Notes under the pieces: model-generated | What the model saw: the letters and a program-made list of their open reading frames with translations, nothing else | What the model was told of the DNA's origin: nothing | Databases searched by the model: none | Origin: a virus | Taxonomy: Duplodnaviria; Heunggongvirae; Uroviricota; Caudoviricetes | Length of the DNA stretch: 64,000 nucleotides | IMG/VR virus record: IMGVR_UViG_2778261505_000002 | Strand: one strand, 5' to 3' | In this document: piece by piece, positions 1,953 to 50,132 of the stretch | Layout: every line of letters begins with the position of its first letter | Numbering within the stretch: the first letter of the stretch is position 1 | Program-made: the position numbers and the translations under genes

Positions 1953-2687
1953 ATGAAAAAGTTGAAAAGTTTAGAAATCCCTGGGACTGGTTATAAATTC
2001 TTTATGGACAACGCGGAGTGTGCGCCTAACGCGTTGGAAAAAATACAAAGTCTTATCAACAGCCTTACTGAAGAAGCGAAAGAACTGAAGAGCGAGGCGA
2101 CAAAGGACAATACAGCTAAAATCCAATGCTTAAATCTCGTTTCTTATTGTTTATATCAAGTGTCCAAAACACTGATTAAAGGCAATATCTATTACGACGA
2201 TGAAGACACCTCGACACCTGAAGAAAAAGATAGCGATGAAGAACTCTATGAAGATATCTCTACCAGTGCGGGTCACGCTGCCTTCGATGCTATGGGTGAA
2301 TCGTCAGGCATCAGATCGTTTGTTGAACAGAACAATTCGACAATAATGATTGAGTACTGTGAACAAACAAGCTCCAAGGCCATACATGTTCTTCACGATG
2401 TTGCTGCAGGGGTTCGCTGTGAGGCTGAAGCGGTCAGAAAAGATGTATTTGGTGCAGACAGTAATACCGTGAAAGCGTTCATCAACAGTGCTCTGCTAAA
2501 TTCTTACTCAAACCTTATCGTCAATGCGGCACTATGCGCAAATTCAGGTGAAGAACACATTGTCATAACTGAAACCAAACATGAGCATCAACAGTCACCA
2601 ACCATAGAAGAGGTAACTGCATTGGCTATCAAACAGGCGAGTGAAATTAGTGATGAAATTCTCTCTCTGCTAAACAAAACTATGTAA
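1953..2687 (+). CDS. hypothetical acidic protein (244 aa)
   Basis: ORF with D/E-rich stretches; no recognisable motif. Confidence 0.5.
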   Translation: MKKLKSLEIPGTGYKFFMDNAECAPNALEKIQSLINSLTEEAKELKSEATKDNTAKIQCLNLVSYCLYQVSKTLIKGNIYYDDEDTSTPEEKDSDEELYEDISTSAGHAAFDAMGESSGIRSFVEQNNSTIMIEYCEQTSSKAIHVLHDVAAGVRCEAEAVRKDVFGADSNTVKAFINSALLNSYSNLIVNAALCANSGEEHIVITETKHEHQQSPTIEEVTALAIKQASEISDEILSLLNKTM

Positions 2688-2811
2688 AACATTGATAATG
2701 GCGGTCACAATTTGATTCTTTTCTATAAGAATCCGTTGATCGCCACTACTCCCCTTCCATACCTGCAATCATACCCTTAAATATCAATAGGTTATGGTTG
2801 TTTATACAAAT

Positions 2812-3640
2812 AAGAAAACAACTAAATAACAGATCAACGAAACGTCAACGCTTTCACCCGATTTGGTCTAAAAAATTGACGTTTTCACACATCACTTCTT
2901 ATACCCGTAACTCTACGCAGCAGACAGCGCCACAGCGTCCAATTTTCACCACAGACGACCCAACACACTACCAACAAAAACATACGCTCAAAATCGCTCC
3001 CGTTGCGTTACACAACCATATAAACAACTTATTTTCAGTCATAACAAAACAACTAAATAACACACATGCCATTCCCAAAAACAACCAACCTCTTTATGGC
3101 AGGCTACCGAAAAGACCCACCTCTTCTCCCCAGGCTACCGGACAACCAACCTAACTTTCACAGGCAATCCGAAAACATTCATACGCGCGATACCCACGAC
3201 ACGCCATTCCCCAAACAGCGAAGAAACACCAGAATCACTGAAACCCCAACGAAGCCTGTAACCGCAAGGATTCTCTCAATCCCAAAAGACACGAAACAGA
3301 ACAATCACGGGAAACGCCATTACCCAATACACGAACAACTACAAAAGCCTTTCACACACTCCAGACAAACAACTCAAACACAATAACGAAAGCAATCGCC
3401 CACCTGCCATTACTCCATACACGGAGAAGAACAATCACCAAAACGACGAGAACACCCCATAGAAGAACCACCGCAAAACGAACGAAACCACATACACCGA
3501 CAGAGAAAACAACACACCCAATTCACCAACAGAAATAGTCGCCGTATAGAACATTCTGGAAGGAGTGAGCATTAACGCCTATAGAGAGGTTGAGACAGAT
3601 AAAACACAACATGTATAGCGAAGAAGCCAGGTATGTATAA
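2812..3640 (+). ncRNA. candidate non-coding transcript: C+A-rich, G-poor tract
   Basis: About 830 bp with strong strand skew (A and C dominate, few G), no credible ORF on either strand, dyad-like half-site at 5' end and hairpin terminator at 3' end. Confidence 0.3.
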
Positions 3641-3875: not shown

Positions 3876-4203
3876 CCGGTATAGCGAGAGGGAGAGTTGC
3901 GGCTACCCACCTGTAATGTGCGGGAAGAAGAGAGGCGCTCACGTAGGCGGACTTGCTTACCGCTGGATTCCCTCTGAATGCCCAGCTACAGCGTAATTGT
4001 GCCAGACAGCCAACGGGTCACAATCGATTTCAGTAGGTTTTTGGGGAGAGGATTACTCTGCCACCAGCCACTTTCGGCCACTAAATCAGAATAATGTAAA
4101 AAGTGTACTCGGTACTGAACCTGAAAACTCACTGCCAAAACCACATTCACCGGAATAAAATCCTTTTTCGCCTGTGCGTTATTGCGATAATAACACCATC
4201 AAG

Positions 4204-4217
4204 AAAACATGTTGTTT
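4204..4217. promoter_or_regulatory. dyad-like AAAACATGTTGTTT (early family, imperfect)
   Basis: Family member upstream of ATG 4230. Confidence 0.4.
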
Positions 4218-4229
4218 AAGGATTGCTTT

Positions 4230-4559
4230 ATGTTTACAAATATCGACATCAACCAAATCAAGAAATTAACTCAAAAAGAGTTTGATCAGTTTTATGAGTT
4301 AGAAGGTTGGTCTTCCACTCTGATCAATTCAAGATGGGTGCTGGAGCTGATGACTCGTGATGACGCACCTGCTTTGATGATTTGCGACATGGGTGAAGAT
4401 GCTGACTTTATGGATATGAGCGAATTTTGTGTGGACACATACAACCGCAGCCAGAAGTACTACTTCACATGCGATAGCGAGAATGACGTTATTTCTAAGG
4501 TCTATCTTCACCTCGTCCAGCATTGGGACGTTCAGGAGTTTCTTGAAGTATTCGAGTAA
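4230..4559 (+). CDS. hypothetical small acidic protein (109 aa)
   Basis: ATG 4230 with AAGGA RBS 8 nt upstream; the track start 4209 lies inside the operator; D/E-rich. Confidence 0.5.
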   Translation: MFTNIDINQIKKLTQKEFDQFYELEGWSSTLINSRWVLELMTRDDAPALMICDMGEDADFMDMSEFCVDTYNRSQKYYFTCDSENDVISKVYLHLVQHWDVQEFLEVFE

Positions 4560-4686
4560 CCCCAACCAAAGCCAGCATTGCTGGCTTAATTTCTCTATAG
4601 CCGCAGGGAAGAACCTGCATATCGCTCATGCACCTGATCAATATGCTTTGTAGCCGTTTTCTTACTGGTATTATTTACGCCATTGA

Positions 4687-4701
4687 GAAAACAAGTTGTT
4701 T
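4687..4701. promoter_or_regulatory. dyad GAAAACAAGTTGTTT (early family)
   Basis: Inverted repeat upstream of ATG 4713. Confidence 0.45.
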
Positions 4702-4712
4702 ACGGAGTTGTA

Positions 4713-5024
4713 ATGAAAAAATCATTGGTTCTTGGTCTGGACAAAGACCAGAAGAGAAAAGAGAAGCCTGCGCTGGTTGCTCAATTAACTTTGCTGGACA
4801 TCGTTGCCAATGGAACCTCTATTCGTCTGTTCCGTGAAACAGCGGTGTCTTTCGATAAAAACACCTTTACTCGTTATGTAATGAATGTTCGTCGCCAGCG
4901 TGGAAAAGGCTGGGTGGCATTTCAAAGAATGTGGCCGGAACATCAGCTCGAACTGGCTTTGATGGAAGTTAACCGCGTGGCCCAGCAAGAAATTCAGAGA
5001 GCATCAGTGATGGCAATAGCCTGA
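4713..5024 (+). CDS. hypothetical protein (103 aa)
   Basis: ATG 4713 preceded by GGAG; track ORF 4683 trimmed to first RBS-supported start. Confidence 0.5.
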   Translation: MKKSLVLGLDKDQKRKEKPALVAQLTLLDIVANGTSIRLFRETAVSFDKNTFTRYVMNVRRQRGKGWVAFQRMWPEHQLELALMEVNRVAQQEIQRASVMAIA

Positions 5025-5059
5025 TAATGTGCAAGTGGCAATTAGTCGACAGTACGACA

Positions 5060-5087
5060 GCCCCGCCATCCTTACGGGGCTTTTTTG
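5060..5087 (+). terminator. rho-independent terminator
   Basis: GCCCCG-loop-CGGGGC followed by TTTTTT. Confidence 0.75.
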
Positions 5088-5150
5088 TATTGTAAGTACA
5101 TACTTACGATCATAGAATATAAAAATAACCAAAACACTACGGAGAGTGAA

Positions 5151-5546
5151 ATGACCGTTAAACGCGAAAAACTGACAGTTGATGTTTACTATGCCTCTGA
5201 AACCGCCGAAGGTAAGAATGTGGCAAAAATCACCGTTGTTACGTACAACACCGAAACTGGTGCCGAAGTCCAGGCCAGTACGATCGTGCGTAAAGGTGAT
5301 GCCTCCGGCGGCGAGTACGCGACTCAATACCAGTCCATTCTCGATGCAACTGACCCGCTGCTGCTGAAAATCGAGAACTACTTCCGCCAGGTTGATGAAG
5401 AGGTGTTTGAAACCATGATGAATATGGTTAACACCGTATTCGCCTCCAGCCTGAATACCAACACTACCTGGATTGGTCAGTACGGCCTGCGCATTACCTC
5501 TGGCATTCCTGCCGACACCTTAATCCCTGAAAGCGTATTCGCTTAA
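5151..5546 (+). CDS. hypothetical protein (131 aa)
   Basis: ATG 5151 with GGAGAG RBS; track ORF 5085 trimmed. Confidence 0.55.
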   Translation: MTVKREKLTVDVYYASETAEGKNVAKITVVTYNTETGAEVQASTIVRKGDASGGEYATQYQSILDATDPLLLKIENYFRQVDEEVFETMMNMVNTVFASSLNTNTTWIGQYGLRITSGIPADTLIPESVFA

Positions 5547-5554
5547 TCCTCTTT

Positions 5555-5583
5555 AAATGGCGCGTAAACCGCGCCATTTTATT
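5555..5583 (+). terminator. rho-independent terminator
   Basis: ATGGCGCG-TAAACC-GCGCCAT hairpin followed by TTTATT. Confidence 0.7.
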
Positions 5584-5590
5584 AAGCCCG

Positions 5591-5605
5591 ATAACAATTT
5601 GTTTT
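5591..5605. promoter_or_regulatory. dyad ATAACAATTTGTTTT (early family)
   Basis: Inverted repeat upstream of the 5622/5664 gene. Confidence 0.45.
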
Positions 5606-5663
5606 CTGCCTTATCTGATTTGTGAAAATGATTTCACTGAAGCAAGTTAATAAGGAAACCATC

Positions 5664-6038
5664 ATGGGACTTGATATCTATATCGAGACACAGCCTAAAA
5701 ACGATCTGAATAACGAGGCATCCAGAAAGCAGGTTGCTTACTTCCGTAAGTTCAATGCGCTCGTTGGGTGGATGGAGCGCAACGTAGGTGAAGTCGAAAA
5801 TTGTGAGCTTTTAGAATTAACGATGAATGACATTTGTTTTCTGAAGGCTCATTTGATGCACATAAACGAAAGTAATTGCGAAGAGTACTTGCCTACCCGG
5901 GAAGGTTTTTTCTTCGGCAGTCAGGAGTACGATGAAGGTTACTGGCATGATGTGGGGCAGTTGAAAGAGCTTGTGGAAGACCTGATTAAGAACCACGACT
6001 TTCACAATAACAGACTGACCTTCTGCGCCTGGTGGTAA
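5664..6038 (+). CDS. hypothetical protein (124 aa; alternative start 5622)
   Basis: ATG 5664 has AAGGA RBS; upstream in-frame ATG 5622 cannot be excluded. Confidence 0.5.
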   Translation: MGLDIYIETQPKNDLNNEASRKQVAYFRKFNALVGWMERNVGEVENCELLELTMNDICFLKAHLMHINESNCEEYLPTREGFFFGSQEYDEGYWHDVGQLKELVEDLIKNHDFHNNRLTFCAWW

Positions 6039-44760: not shown

Positions 44761-45282
44761 TTATTCTTCGAACAATTTTTCGATAGATTTTGTAGGATAG
44801 AACAAAGAACGCTCGTTGTTACCAACCAGCTGGATAAAGTCTAAACTTTTATAAAACGCCTTGGCTTTGTCATTTAACGCCTCAACGAAAAGTCCATGAA
44901 TGCCTACAGCAAGAGATGCATTGTACACAACGCGCATTGCATGTGTTACAAGCATTGAGCCAAATCCTTGACCTTGAAGGGACTTGTCCAAAGCCAGCCT
45001 ACCCAAAGTAACACTTGGAACATTCCGATAAGGTACCTTCTTTTGCTGGCTTCTTGAAGGTAAGGACTCCTTTTCAAAGCAGCTACCTGACAAAGTGTAA
45101 TACCCTAACACTTTTGGTCTGCCTTCTTTCGTGCAAAGCACATAAGCGCGAAGAATTTTTCCCTCATGCTGCCTTTTTAAGTGGTTGGTTAAAAAGGCAT
45201 TTAGTGATTCTTCACCGCAATCAAAACCATTCAAATCATAATCTTTCTCTCCAGAGAAAATTTCTATCTTTATATTATCCAC
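44761..45282 (-). CDS. GNAT-family acetyltransferase toxin (TacT/AtaT/KacT-type)
   Basis: GNAT motif A QGQGFGSMLV; 173 aa; immediately downstream of DUF1778-like gene. Confidence 0.75.
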   Translation of the reverse strand: MDNIKIEIFSGEKDYDLNGFDCGEESLNAFLTNHLKRQHEGKILRAYVLCTKEGRPKVLGYYTLSGSCFEKESLPSRSQQKKVPYRNVPSVTLGRLALDKSLQGQGFGSMLVTHAMRVVYNASLAVGIHGLFVEALNDKAKAFYKSLDFIQLVGNNERSLFYPTKSIEKLFEE

Positions 45283-45289
45283 GAGTAAA

Positions 45290-45559
45290 CTACTCCATGC
45301 TTTTCAGACGATCAGCAGCTCGTTTCAGCTTGTCGTTCGGTGCCGGAGGATTGCTTATAGCGTCCATAACCAGATTCCAGGATTCTTCATTCAGAACTAG
45401 TCTACGGTGTTGCTCTATAACTTTCACGGCACGTTCAGATGCACTGCTAACCATAAACTGAGTAATGCTCTGGTTAGACATTGCGGCAGCTTCCTCGATG
45501 ATGCTTTTATCGTCATCGGTTAATCTCAAATCGATGCGCTGCTTTTTTAGTGCTGACAT
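45290..45559 (-). CDS. RHH antitoxin (DUF1778/TacA-type)
   Basis: About 90 aa; ATG 45559 with GGAGG RBS; 8 bp from toxin start. Confidence 0.7.
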   Translation of the reverse strand: MSALKKQRIDLRLTDDDKSIIEEAAAMSNQSITQFMVSSASERAVKVIEQHRRLVLNEESWNLVMDAISNPPAPNDKLKRAADRLKSME

Positions 45560-45826
45560 GTATTCCTCCTGATGGCCGTGATGTAGGAAGGCCATCAATC
45601 TCCTCTGTTCAAACTGAGTTTTCGACTCAAAAATTACTTTAAAAGGCTATAGCCCATTACGTGTGCATTATCAAATTGTGTACGGCATATCACCGTACTT
45701 GTAATATAGAGGTCATTGTTACTTTTTTCAACAGACAAATACAAGCTATGTTTGCCAATTGTTAATCACAACCTACCATTTAACCTTTACACCGCAGCCG
45801 TAGGCATTTAGGCTATATCACATATA

Positions 45827-45877: not shown

Positions 45878-46546
45878 ATGACCAAGATCTTTGTGGTTGG
45901 CGGCACAAAGGGCGGGCCTGGCAAATCCACCGTTGCCCAGCAAATTGCCGTTTGCCTGAAAGTCAAAAAGAAGAAGAAGGTTTATATTACCGATATAGAT
46001 ATTCAGCGCACGACAACGAGCTGGTGTGAAGACCGTCGACAGAACGAAGACCTTGAGCTGATTCCTTTTGCATACGTTCAGGATGACATCATTAAGCACC
46101 TAAAATCGCTTCAGGGTAGAGCTGAGTTTGTAGTGGTAGATGCTGGTGGCTTCGACTCCGAAATTCAGCGACAAGCGATGCTGATGGCTGACGTTATCAT
46201 TATCCCGCTGCGTCCTAAGCGTCGTGATTTGAAATCTTTACGTGACATCGATCCTATTATCGACAATGTTCGCAATGTAAACGATAAAGTGAAGGTCCGC
46301 GCGGTCATGAACCAGTGCCCGGCTTTGCCATCACAAGTGTCTCGCATTCTGGCGGCTAAAGAGATTGTTGAGACGTTTGGAATCGAGTCTGCGCCAGTCA
46401 ATCTATATAACCGCAACGTCTATGATGATGCGGAAGAGTCTGGTCGTTCTATCTTTGAAATGACCGGTAGCGAGCGCGACAAAAAGGCGGAAGCCGAGTT
46501 TGAAGAATTTGTAGATTATCTGTTGAGTCTGGAGGAAGAAGAATAA
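45878..46546 (+). CDS. ParA-family partition ATPase
   Basis: Deviant Walker A GGTKGGPGKST; 222 aa. Confidence 0.8.
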   Translation: MTKIFVVGGTKGGPGKSTVAQQIAVCLKVKKKKKVYITDIDIQRTTTSWCEDRRQNEDLELIPFAYVQDDIIKHLKSLQGRAEFVVVDAGGFDSEIQRQAMLMADVIIIPLRPKRRDLKSLRDIDPIIDNVRNVNDKVKVRAVMNQCPALPSQVSRILAAKEIVETFGIESAPVNLYNRNVYDDAEESGRSIFEMTGSERDKKAEAEFEEFVDYLLSLEEEE

Positions 46547-46905
46547 TGTCCATGAAAATGGGTGACCTAGCAAAGCGCAAAGAGCCTGATGCACCGGCTA
46601 AGAACACAACTCCTTTGCGCCAACCAGTCAGACCACAGGGACGCCCGACTCGTGGCAAAGAGAAAATTAAAAGCCGCACAATGTCACTGGAGGACGAATA
46701 CTTCGAACTGCTGGAGATGATGAAGTTCATCCCTCGCTTCGAGAAGTTCACTCGTTCTGACGTGATTCGAGCAGCCATTTTCCATCTGGCAGAGAAGTCA
46801 CCGCAGGAAATCGAGGACATCGTGAAATTGAATGAGGCGATCACCGCTGCCGATGTCACGATGCGTACCGATGAAATCAAACGAGAGTTGATGAAGAAAG
46901 GTTAA
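46546..46905 (+). CDS. small partition-associated DNA-binding protein (ParG/RHH-like, putative)
   Basis: 119 aa, basic N-terminus, translationally coupled to ParA. Confidence 0.5.
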   Translation: MSMKMGDLAKRKEPDAPAKNTTPLRQPVRPQGRPTRGKEKIKSRTMSLEDEYFELLEMMKFIPRFEKFTRSDVIRAAIFHLAEKSPQEIEDIVKLNEAITAADVTMRTDEIKRELMKKG

Positions 46906-46910
46906 AAATC

Positions 46911-46941
46911 ATGCATTGGCGCGTACATTGCGCCAATGCAT
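46911..46941. terminator. bidirectional hairpin between convergent genes
   Basis: ATGCATTGGCGC-GTACATT-GCGCCAATGCAT perfect 12 bp stem. Confidence 0.6.
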
Positions 46942-46957
46942 AACTACAGTGTCAGCT

Positions 46958-47725
46958 TTATGCCGCGCTAACACTATGTTCAGTCCTAACCACCCCAACC
47001 TTCACAAAAGGGCTACCGTAGCTTGGTGGCTTCTTGATTAATTTGCCTACATACAGTTTTCTAATATGCTCATCGGCTATTCTGCCAACAAATTCATAAC
47101 GTTTTGTGTCGGGGCCAAGAGCTATATCCCTTGTAAAGTACTGCTGAGAACCGGCTTTGACCCAGCATTCAATCTGATAAACTTCCATTATCAGCCCACC
47201 ATATGTAGCGTAGGCATATTTGAGATTCTCGTCTCTTGGAACCTTTGCCCATACGCCACGCGTAGCTTCATATAATGCCAGAGCGGACATTCCTGACTTG
47301 TAGGTGCTGTTTAGCAGGAAGGCAAGACCGGCGTGCTCAGGAGCAATTTCAGTTTCCTCTTGCAGCACTAAGTGATGGTAGGCGTCTAGTGATATTCTGC
47401 CCATCATGGAACCACTTCCTCGTACCTTATTCGTAAGCTCTCCGACCCCCATAAGGTCGATGCATGTCGCCTCAACAAGTTTGGCTGTGGTTTCATCCAT
47501 ACCATGACGAAGTATATCTATGCCTAATTTTTTATTAGCCAAAAGTTCTTTGATCCGCATGGATTTGGGAGAGTCATCGGGATACTTGATGTGATCGAGA
47601 CAACGAGTCGATTTGCCTTTTCCTATGTAAAACGGTCTTTTCATCTTGTCTTCTGTATCATAGAGACAGTAAACATAGTATTTAGCCTTATCCAATGATC
47701 TCGCGTATACCGATAAATCGTCCAT
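46958..47725 (-). CDS. GIY-YIG nuclease-domain protein (255 aa)
   Basis: N-terminal YVYCLYD...PFYIGKGK...R...H matches the GIY-YIG pattern; C-terminal region unassigned. Confidence 0.6.
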   Translation of the reverse strand: MDDLSVYARSLDKAKYYVYCLYDTEDKMKRPFYIGKGKSTRCLDHIKYPDDSPKSMRIKELLANKKLGIDILRHGMDETTAKLVEATCIDLMGVGELTNKVRGSGSMMGRISLDAYHHLVLQEETEIAPEHAGLAFLLNSTYKSGMSALALYEATRGVWAKVPRDENLKYAYATYGGLIMEVYQIECWVKAGSQQYFTRDIALGPDTKRYEFVGRIADEHIRKLYVGKLIKKPPSYGSPFVKVGVVRTEHSVSAA

Positions 47726-47836
47726 TATTGCATCTCTTTGCTACTGACTAATGCGTTCTATTTTACACATAAGTTTTTAATCAATTTAACAGGCTCAAAG
47801 TGTAGAGCTTCTGGGCGTCTAAGACGACAAGTTATG

Positions 47837-47891
47837 CCTGCTTCCGTATATATAAATAATAAGTAACTTATTAAATATATACGGAAGCAGG
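47837..47891. repeat. 55 bp palindromic element, copy 2
   Basis: Near-identical to 15379-15433. Confidence 0.7.
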
Positions 47892-47998
47892 TCTTTTAAA
47901 AGACACCACCAGAACAACTCCCTTCCGTTTCCACTTCCAAAAACTGCCACCAGTCGCTATCATCCGCTCATTGTGATAAGTAAGTAACTACCTACCAG

Positions 47999-48748
47999 GT
48001 GAGCCACATGAGCCAAATCTTTTTCGATACCATCGACAACGACCAGTACGACTTCATGACAGAGTGGAATACCGCTGTTATGGACAAGTGGGTCGCTGAA
48101 AACATTGGTTTGTCGCGCTGTAAAGACGAGGCTGAACTCTTCGAGACGAAGTGGTTTGATTACCGCGACATGCATCCTCTCATGGCCACCTGTCTTTTTA
48201 CGGAGGCATACAAACGTCAGTACTCAAATATCATGCTGACGCACGGTCGCGAACACTTTGAAACAGCTCCGTTCACCACCGGGTTAAAACGTCTGCCTTA
48301 TCAGGAGTTGTCGACTGCCAATAAAACGTCGCTATGGAAAGCACGCCAGTTTGCGGATCGCTATTGCTGCTCATACGACTACTTTATCTCCACCGTTCTT
48401 TCCGCAGCTGCACGACGGCTGTGGGACAAGCTGCCGCGCCCACAGCATTTATGGCAGCCAGAACTGATTGAGATATTTGAAGAGAAATTAGCCAGACGCG
48501 CAACAACCCGTCTGGATGACTCTCTGGTTAGCTTTAAGCATATGGGAGACATGCAGTTCAACCCGATTCAGGAAAGCTATTTTGAGTGGATTCTGGAGCG
48601 TTTGCGCACCATCCCTCGCAGCAAGCGCATACGCGCAATTTTCTCCGCTATCTGGCTAATGGAAATCGTTCCAGAGCGCCTTATTTCCGCCCACTTTCCA
48701 GAAGAACTGGAAGAAGCACGGCGGTTTATTGATCCCCTATCTAATTAA
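47999..48748 (+). CDS. hypothetical protein (249 aa), first gene of replication module
   Basis: ORF preceded by late-type GTAAGTA motif. Confidence 0.5.
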   Translation: MSHMSQIFFDTIDNDQYDFMTEWNTAVMDKWVAENIGLSRCKDEAELFETKWFDYRDMHPLMATCLFTEAYKRQYSNIMLTHGREHFETAPFTTGLKRLPYQELSTANKTSLWKARQFADRYCCSYDYFISTVLSAAARRLWDKLPRPQHLWQPELIEIFEEKLARRATTRLDDSLVSFKHMGDMQFNPIQESYFEWILERLRTIPRSKRIRAIFSAIWLMEIVPERLISAHFPEELEEARRFIDPLSN

Positions 48749-48756
48749 CTAATACT

Positions 48757-48772
48757 AGAAAACAATTTGTTT
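48757..48772. promoter_or_regulatory. dyad AGAAAACAATTTGTTT (early family)
   Basis: Upstream of helicase gene. Confidence 0.45.
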
Positions 48773-48791
48773 AAAAAACAAAGGAAAGCAC

Positions 48792-50132
48792 ATGACCGAA
48801 CTTTGCCATACAGGACGCGGGCTGTCCGAAGAATTTGATGAAGATTTCCAGAACAGACTGACGGCATATTTTTGTCGTGATCACGAGTTTCTTACTCGTG
48901 CGGGAGATCTGGTTGTGCCTAGCCAGTTTGCCAATGCGGCCAATGCCATATTGGTTAATATGGTTTCGGGCTATTACCGTATGTACAAGAGCGCGCCCTC
49001 TTCATCTGCAATTCTGGATATGCTTAAGCGTGCGAAACGCGATAAGACTATCCGTGAGGAACTATTCGCCGATGTTGTTGCTGCGTTTAAGCGCATCCTT
49101 GCAGAAAAATTGTCCGATACCTCGTACATGGTTGACCAGGTATCAACCTTCGCAAAAAGTGTAGCGTTTGATGATGCTCTGATTAAGGCTGCTGAACTGA
49201 AAGAGAAAGGCGACTTTCAGGGGGCGATGGCAATCATGGCCAAGGTTCAGCAGATTGGATCGAACGAAGCGACCGGAATCTATGACTACTACACCTCCGC
49301 AAGTGAGCGATTGAAAGCGCGTGAATATGAGGCTTCAGAGGAGTATGTACCAAACAGTATTACAACTGGACTCCCTCTTCTCGATAGGTTGCTGTACCAA
49401 AAAGGCTGGGCAAAGCGCGAAATGGTGCTCTTCATGGGGTTCGCTAAATCCGGTAAATCGACCGCAATGGGGGAGTTTTCCATAAACGCAACACTTGCTG
49501 GCTACAATGTTCTGTATCTCTCGCTGGAGGTTCACACCACCATTTTATCCGACCGTTTTGATGCAAGATTGTCGGAGACGGAAATGTCCAAGTTGGTGGA
49601 ACGGCGCGATGAAGTTCATCGTAAGTTGGCAGAGTTGGGAGCCTCTAAGGGGATTGGTAGTTTGTGGGTTGTTGAGCGTCCGTCAGGAAGTATGTCACCG
49701 GCAGATCTGGACCGTATGCTTAACAGTATGAAAGCCAATGGCATGGTGCCTGACATGGTTGTTGTCGACTACGCAGATTTGATGCGTGCCAGTTATGACC
49801 TTCGTGATGATCGCGCCAACATTCGTAGTATCTACACCGATTTACGTGCTCTTTATGACAAGCATAACGTTGCTGGGATCACGGCATCGCAGACAAACCG
49901 TGAAGGTGGCGCGTCAGAAGTTGCCACAATGATGCACGCTGCCGACAACATCGAAAAAGTACGTATTGCTGACCTGGTAATAACGATCAACAAAACCGAA
50001 GAAGAAGAAGCGAAAGGAGAGGCTCGTCTCTACTTTGCTGGTTCACGTAACCAGCAGGGAGGGATCAGCATTCGCGTTAAACAAAACCTCGAACAAATGC
50101 GCTTCATTGAGCGAATCTTAGACGTTACCTAA
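48792..50132 (+). CDS. DnaB-like replicative helicase
   Basis: Walker A GFAKSGKST, SLEV (DnaB-type) motif, RecA-like C-terminal domain. Confidence 0.75.
   Translation: MTELCHTGRGLSEEFDEDFQNRLTAYFCRDHEFLTRAGDLVVPSQFANAANAILVNMVSGYYRMYKSAPSSSAILDMLKRAKRDKTIREELFADVVAAFKRILAEKLSDTSYMVDQVSTFAKSVAFDDALIKAAELKEKGDFQGAMAIMAKVQQIGSNEATGIYDYYTSASERLKAREYEASEEYVPNSITTGLPLLDRLLYQKGWAKREMVLFMGFAKSGKSTAMGEFSINATLAGYNVLYLSLEVHTTILSDRFDARLSETEMSKLVERRDEVHRKLAELGASKGIGSLWVVERPSGSMSPADLDRMLNSMKANGMVPDMVVVDYADLMRASYDLRDDRANIRSIYTDLRALYDKHNVAGITASQTNREGGASEVATMMHAADNIEKVRIADLVITINKTEEEEAKGEARLYFAGSRNQQGGISIRVKQNLEQMRFIERILDVT

Follow-up and report, generated by a model that had tools for sequence, protein, structure and literature searches.

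A divergent PD-T4-3/CMoRE-family nuclease as probable anti-phage cargo of an Escherichia coli SSU5-like phage-plasmid

The window analysed here, the whole 64,000-nucleotide stretch from the Caudoviricetes record IMGVR_UViG_2778261505_000002, is assigned by sequence comparison to an SSU5-like phage-plasmid of Escherichia coli. Across region 46000-49000 it shares 99.8% identity with plasmids such as p4_0.2 (NZ_CP023851) and 98.6-99.5% with the phage records PhiR41_1 and CMS-2020a; Cyrano, SSU5 and hundreds of plasmids from Klebsiella, Enterobacter and Salmonella show collinear but more distant matches. The gene of interest occupies 46958..47725 on the minus strand, where an open reading frame (ORF) runs from an ATG at 47725 to a stop codon at 46958 and encodes 255 residues; a purine-rich, AAGAG-type ribosome-binding site lies 8-13 nt 5′ of the ATG. 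The original prediction had placed a stand-alone GIY-YIG nuclease at exactly these coordinates, between a partition locus and a replication module. Both gene and setting are borne out, with ParA and ParB-like genes on one side and helicase and primase genes on the other. The product appears to be a divergent member of the PD-T4-3/CMoRE family of anti-phage nucleases.

The PADLOC profile for PD-T4-3 (PDLC04031) matches the protein with an E-value of 1.3e-23, aligning residues 11-231 of 255 with profile positions 11-238 of 256. A phmmer search against all PDB sequences returned CMoRE entries (9u7u, 9u75) as the sole matches; that to 9u7u_A (E 2e-15) covers residues 12-230 and spans both domains. 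By BLASTP the window protein and CMoRE share 32% identity over 236 residues; by domain, identity is 39.5% for the nuclease and 27% for the C-terminal sensor. PHROG 5356, a family of unknown function, matches over the full length (E 1e-99), and a search of NCBIfam gave no match. The same gene in plasmids 99.8-99.9% identical to the window encodes WP_000342417.1, which RefSeq names only as a “LEM-3-like GIY-YIG domain-containing protein”.

PD-T4-3 was characterized in January 2026, when crystal structures were obtained and the protein was renamed CMoRE (PMC12923530). This type IV restriction endonuclease consists of a single protein. It degrades T-even phage DNA containing 5-hydroxymethylcytosine (5hmC) or glucosyl-5hmC but spares DNA with cytosine or 5-methylcytosine, cutting at C-N11/N9-G to leave 2-nt 3′ overhangs (PMC12923530). 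The enzyme provides direct immunity rather than abortive infection, and requires assembly as a tetramer (a dimer of dimers) for function; the active site is covered by an acidic loop that functions as an autoinhibitory lid (PMC12923530). The family is known from E. coli ECOR68, APEC O1 and O157:H7, with PDB entries 9U7U, 9U7Z, 9U75 and 9U8D (PMC12923530). Like the window protein, PD-T4-3/CMoRE is the product of a single gene (~255-262 residues) with an N-terminal GIYxY-YIG domain, the same catalytic Tyr, Tyr, Tyr, Arg, Glu and Asn, and a homologous C-terminal sensor including a conserved C-terminal tail.

The nuclease domain is encoded by 47411..47725 (minus strand). Pfam PF22945 (LEM-3-like GIY-YIG) matches residues 32-104 with an E-value of 5.5e-7, above the gathering score, in agreement with the GIY-YIG assignment first made from the letters. 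Tyrosines Y17, Y19 and Y33 together with R41, E85 and N99 make up a complete catalytic set. These align with CMoRE Y17, Y19, Y31, R39, E93 and N105, the first five of which are needed for defense and cleavage as judged by mutation (PMC12923530). Two alignments were used to assess conservation, one of 17 sequences (the window protein, 14 subfamily members and two crystallized CMoRE proteins) and one of 82 subfamily sequences (the window protein and 81 others, with identity down to 50%). Y17, Y19, Y33, R41, H45, E85 and N99 are invariant in both, so the doubt raised at the outset over catalytic-residue conservation is answered in favor of an intact nuclease. A further 45 columns are invariant across the 82 homologs, which argues that the gene is under purifying selection and not decaying. 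Of the CMoRE residues relevant to tetramer assembly, R80 and V92 have conserved counterparts (R73 and V84), but L96 corresponds to the invariant C88.

These observations bear on a further possibility, that the gene specifies a nuclease, either a housekeeping repair enzyme or a structure-specific one (UvrC-, Slx1- or LEM-3-like), that serves phage-plasmid replication or recombination, or is a decaying, non-functional remnant. The only Pfam match carries the LEM-3-like name and the gene adjoins the replication module, but a Foldseek search with the nuclease finds CMoRE first and UvrC GIY-YIG domains only afterward (E 5e-12 versus 8e-3), the two-domain match to CMoRE being far the stronger. The invariance of the catalytic and 45 other columns speaks against decay, and over half of the E. 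coli relatives lack the gene, as do SSU5 and Cyrano, which replicate without it. A repair role or a remnant is therefore very improbable, and both were rejected.

If the N-terminal half is a GIY-YIG nuclease, what is the remainder of the protein? The original prediction had found no assignable motif there. This stands as far as Pfam is concerned, since a scan of the C-terminal 149 residues alone (107-255) gave no family even at an E-value of 10, but it has been superseded by the crystal-structure paper (PMC12923530). Residues 107-245 (46991..47407, minus strand) are homologous to the modified-base-sensing domain of CMoRE. Comparison of the whole predicted chain with CMoRE by Foldseek gave a TM-score of only 0.38 and a root-mean-square deviation of 16 Å. 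In the predicted model the linker, residues 96-106, is flexible (predicted local distance difference test, pLDDT, <50) and the two domains are oriented differently from those of CMoRE; because the linker shifts their relative orientation, the C-terminal domain was modeled and searched separately. The two-domain homology to CMoRE holds at the sequence, profile and fold levels, and the C-terminal half has the CMoRE sensor fold and is not a sequence-specific DNA-binding module.

This sensor has been described as a fold without homologs. A phmmer search with residues 107-255 against 1.84 billion cluster representatives found 757 proteins with E<=1e-3, 229 of them with E<=1e-10. Many have the canonical architecture of ~250 residues; in others the domain is N-terminal, central or in tandem, and many homologs of ~125 residues apparently consist of the sensor alone. 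Ten of the more unusual sensor-domain proteins were scanned with Pfam, which revealed fusions. Partners include an McrB-like AAA_5 GTPase with an SRA domain (P0208), AAA_5 alone (P0265), a Swt1-like HEPN domain (P0222) and a protein kinase (P0147); in P0138 a GIY-YIG domain is accompanied by additional copies of the sensor, and in P0176 it belongs to a longer chain that extends past the sensor. Such modularity is the behavior expected for a reader of modified DNA from type IV restriction systems.

The PvuRts1I/AbaSI and MspJI groups of type IV restriction enzymes pair a PUA-like reader with a nuclease. The window protein differs in nuclease type, being GIY-YIG, from the enzymes with PUA-like readers (SRA, EVE, YTH and ASCH; e.g., VcaM4I) and from those with McrB N-terminal domains. 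The fold resemblance of its sensor to PUA-like readers is weak, with less than 10% identity over ~90 aligned residues of a predicted model, and a search of the sensor-domain profile against all PDB sequences found CMoRE only, matches to LotA (15-17 bits) being noise. As CMoRE alone was found, the link to PUA-like folds has no sequence support. It can tentatively be proposed that the family sensor is a very divergent PUA-like (EVE/YTH/ASCH-type) reader of modified bases, circulating as a module fused to GIY-YIG domains, McrB-like GTPases with SRA, HEPN RNases and kinases, and apparently also alone, and that the phage-plasmid clade is a “lid-less” CMoRE branch with different self/non-self discrimination and modification range.

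Taken together, the gene is probably, with a likelihood of roughly 80%, a divergent PD-T4-3/CMoRE-family nuclease carried as accessory anti-phage cargo of an E. coli SSU5-like phage-plasmid. Its mechanism is modeled on that of CMoRE. The C-terminal domain would bind hypermodified bases in incoming phage DNA, most likely the 5-hydroxymethyl- or glucosyl-hydroxymethyl-cytosine found in T-even phages. The protein would oligomerize, and its N-terminal GIYxY-YIG domain would cut both strands in an Mg2+-dependent manner, at a set distance from the modified bases. The phage genome would thereby be degraded directly without killing of the cell, while host and phage-plasmid DNA, which have no such bases, would be spared. 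Nuclease activity, modification dependence, the modification read, oligomeric state and host protection are each expected here by homology to the characterized enzyme. The defense or exclusion effector first suggested as one option for this gene was right in kind. A 2025 preprint that applied DefenseFinder to phage-plasmids also lists PD-T4-3 for E. coli and Shigella elements of the SSU5 group, so its presence in these elements had already been reported; the nuclease is a real gene of a known kind, lid-less and divergent.

The differences from CMoRE center on the lid. Its counterpart in the window protein is the α2-α3 loop, approximately residues 45-57 (HIKYPDDSPKSMR; 47555..47593, minus strand). 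Counted from H45 to I58, the window loop HIKYPDDSPKSMRI has 14 residues, two of them acidic, and a net charge of +1. The CMoRE loop is five residues longer (19 residues), with a net charge of -3 and a DDDE or DDDD run. All but one of the 15 tabulated subfamily sequences have the short loop; the exception (P0113) has 20 residues and a net charge of -2, and none of the 15 has a four-residue acidic run. The CMoRE authors state that the acidic loop is present in “most” family members (PMC12923530). Since they say most and not all, its absence is a subfamily difference and no bar to membership. Two CMoRE insertions, “HVIH” following the third strand and a sensor-domain loop, “DEFEAT”, are missing from the window protein; carriage on a phage-plasmid is a further difference.

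Several points weigh against assigning the gene to this family with the function of CMoRE. With the lid shortened and uncharged, this subfamily must restrain itself less strongly or by other means. Of the two dimer-interface residues tested in CMoRE, one, L96, is replaced by an invariant cysteine (C88 in the window protein). The contact of CMoRE with 5hmC is made by a main-chain atom of Y127 (PMC12923530), and Y127 aligns with V120; because the contact is a backbone atom and the side chain has changed, specificity is not readable from the sequence. Identity to the characterized enzymes is low, above all in the sensor (figures above). A literature search for WP_000342417 found no paper naming the accession and no experiment on the protein. 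Finally, a consensus-based scan of 46500-48100 for promoters and terminators gave no hits, sigma-70 promoters 5′ of the gene included.

Could a protein with the CMoRE fold have another target or another form of control? It might read a different hypermodification, such as Mu-type N6-carbamoylmethyl-adenine, arabinosyl-hydroxymethylcytosine or deazaguanine, or cut unmodified DNA when induced, and so work as a nuclease of the exclusion or abortive kind against rival phages and plasmids, in place of a clean restriction enzyme specific for hmC. The loop and the sensor identity described above fit this reading, as does the CMoRE 4A loop mutant, in which four acidic residues are replaced and which is more active, cuts ordinary DNA and is toxic (PMC12923530). 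PD-T4-3Capno, a 48%-identical homolog from Capnocytophaga, is a modification-dependent nuclease that also degrades Mu DNA, which contains carbamoylmethyl-adenine (PMC12366544); the recognition range is therefore plastic within the family. From its description this protein is likened to the window protein, as a divergent homolog that has kept its function at low identity. Against this reading, the acidic loop is stated to be present in only most family members, and the gene is stable at >99% identity on >130 plasmids, including other plasmid types, which argues against appreciable self-toxicity. Another target or control is accordingly considered unlikely, and the T-even-directed, CMoRE-like defense nuclease is preferred.

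The gene lies in an exchangeable cassette, 46904..47826, composed of a terminator, the gene and its 5′ region, with borders taken from blastn comparisons with Cyrano, SSU5 and plasmid NZ_LR890608. The left breakpoint, 46903/46904, is at the stop codon of the parB-like gene. The right, 47836/47837, is at the start of a palindrome, with a blastn range of 47827-47837. Between these borders the present element carries the minus-strand nuclease gene and its own terminator-like hairpin; Cyrano a plus-strand DUF2971 protein matching the PADLOC candidate PDC-S31 (E 3e-41); SSU5 three genes including a DUF2971/PDC-S31 protein; and NZ_LR890608 a minus-strand gene for a 352-residue protein with no Pfam or PADLOC match, which could be an undescribed defense gene. 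The slot corresponds to 3905-4720, 3902-5839 and 2105-3344 in the extracted relatives L001, L002 and L013, and at least four alternative contents were seen. DUF2971/PDC-S31 also fills the slot in other E. coli plasmids besides Cyrano.

Of 5426 complete E. coli genomes, 107 have the nuclease gene, in every case on a plasmid; the adjacent backbone gene was found in 248. The nuclease is therefore accessory cargo in roughly 40% of such E. coli elements and not a core gene, the other outcome that would have counted against the original prediction. The base composition of the gene (G+C 0.45-0.47) is near that of the backbone (0.47-0.49) and so does not mark it as foreign.

This distribution also bears on the proposal that the gene is a free-standing homing endonuclease, which would cut the empty allele of related phage-plasmids and copy itself into the site. 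Homing endonucleases of the I-TevI and SegA-G type share the GIY-YIG catalytic core, the present gene is solitary, on the opposite strand and between conserved backbone genes, and distant homologs in jumbo phages have been annotated as “putative homing nuclease”. However, the window protein has no homing-type DNA-binding module, intron or target-gene association; its C-terminal half, blank in Pfam, matches the CMoRE sensor and not the I-TevI type of module, and its characterized relatives are modification dependent without strict sequence specificity (PMC12923530). Presence versus absence of the gene at this exact site had been suggested as a homing signature. No empty slot was seen in a spread sample of 60 of the 731 related plasmids; relatives carry different cargo between the same breakpoints, and homologs occur in unrelated chromosomal and plasmid contexts. 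The pattern is one of cassette replacement in a cargo hotspot, not homing. With no empty slot among the 60 records sampled, the homing option was rejected as most improbable.

In its wider occurrence, too, the gene stands alone, as predicted. No partner gene is conserved, and its neighbors are entirely different among the phage-plasmid, an IncF plasmid, a Leclercia plasmid, a Providencia chromosome and a 6.4-Mb metagenome-assembled chromosome. The conjugative IncF plasmid pCPWW7-IncF (NZ_CP075717.1, 4532-6146) contains a 1.6-kb piece of phage-plasmid at 94% identity beside IS3, running from the end of parA through the parB-like and nuclease genes to the start of the 249-residue gene; the cassette thus also travels on ordinary plasmids. 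On the Leclercia plasmid pLEC-5e18 the homolog adjoins VapBC, in Providencia it is near mutS and a Fic gene, and on the 6.4-Mb chromosome it adjoins two RelA/SpoT-domain genes, a helicase and transposases.

Further homologs were noted in passing. One of ~72% nucleotide identity is present on the conjugative IncY plasmid p2018K-0756 (CP044008.1, 42159-42858) from a Salmonella Typhi blood isolate from Pakistan, at a position for which the PLSDB table lists no gene, and similar copies occur on Leclercia, Enterobacter and Citrobacter plasmids. The 142-kb E. coli plasmid NZ_CP107722.1 retains only the last 104 nt of the nuclease gene (72064-72167), apparently the remnant of a cassette deletion. Jumbo lytic phages of ~250-285 kb (Serratia Moabite, 2050HW and Yubaba, Pectobacterium vB_ParM-25, Klebsiella N1M2 and Pseudomonas OBP) encode homologs of 25-30% identity, annotated variously as GIY-YIG or “putative homing” nucleases; those of the Serratia and Pectobacterium phages cover both domains. 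These may be modification-dependent nucleases directed against competing phages.

SSU5-like phage-plasmids are present in ~5% of complete E. coli genomes (the 248 above) and are linked to clinically important lineages. In the elements that carry it, the nuclease would give hosts resistance to T-even-type phages, which would matter for phage therapy and for the persistence of such elements. The shortened, uncharged lid provides a natural test of the proposed CMoRE autoinhibition model, and CMoRE-family enzymes are under consideration as 5hmC-mapping reagents. With its precise borders, the slot between parB and the palindrome is also convenient for seeking further cargo defense genes.

Two palindromes flank the gene, as had been pointed out at the start. 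The first is a terminator-like hairpin (46907..46945, minus strand; stem 46911-46922/46930-46941) 12 nt past the nuclease stop codon and inside the variable cassette. Its perfect 12-bp G+C-rich stem folds on the minus strand at -25.1 kcal/mol (z -5.1) and is followed by UUUUU; it was found by inverted-repeat search and folding, having been missed by the consensus terminator scan. The second is a near-perfect 55-bp backbone palindrome (47837..47891, no strand assigned; inverted repeats I1 and I3) that forms the right border of the hotspot. It folds at -32.4 kcal/mol (z -9.4), is followed on the plus strand by TCTTTT and is kept in all relatives examined (L001, L002, L003, L004, L006 and L013); in Cyrano, paired arm changes (C>T/G>A) keep complementarity. 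Because it is conserved whatever the cargo, this palindrome is not part of the nuclease cassette. It may terminate transcripts of parAB and the cargo before they reach the replication genes, or it may be a site bound by a protein or one related to an origin. Short plus-strand ORFs of 69 and 53 residues within the nuclease gene were taken as chance ORFs.

Upstream of the nuclease lie the ParA gene (45878-46546) and the ParB-like gene (46546-46905), and on the downstream flank the 249-residue gene precedes the DnaB-like helicase and primase genes. The toxin-antitoxin pair originally remarked on nearby is a TacT-like GNAT toxin with a TacA antitoxin (44761-45598), upstream of parA. Its position is replaceable, being occupied in PhiR41_1 (L003, 1541-2716) and SSU5 (L002, 1568-2724) by two unrelated plus-strand genes with no Pfam or PADLOC match, suggesting that the partition genes are flanked by a second slot for cargo.
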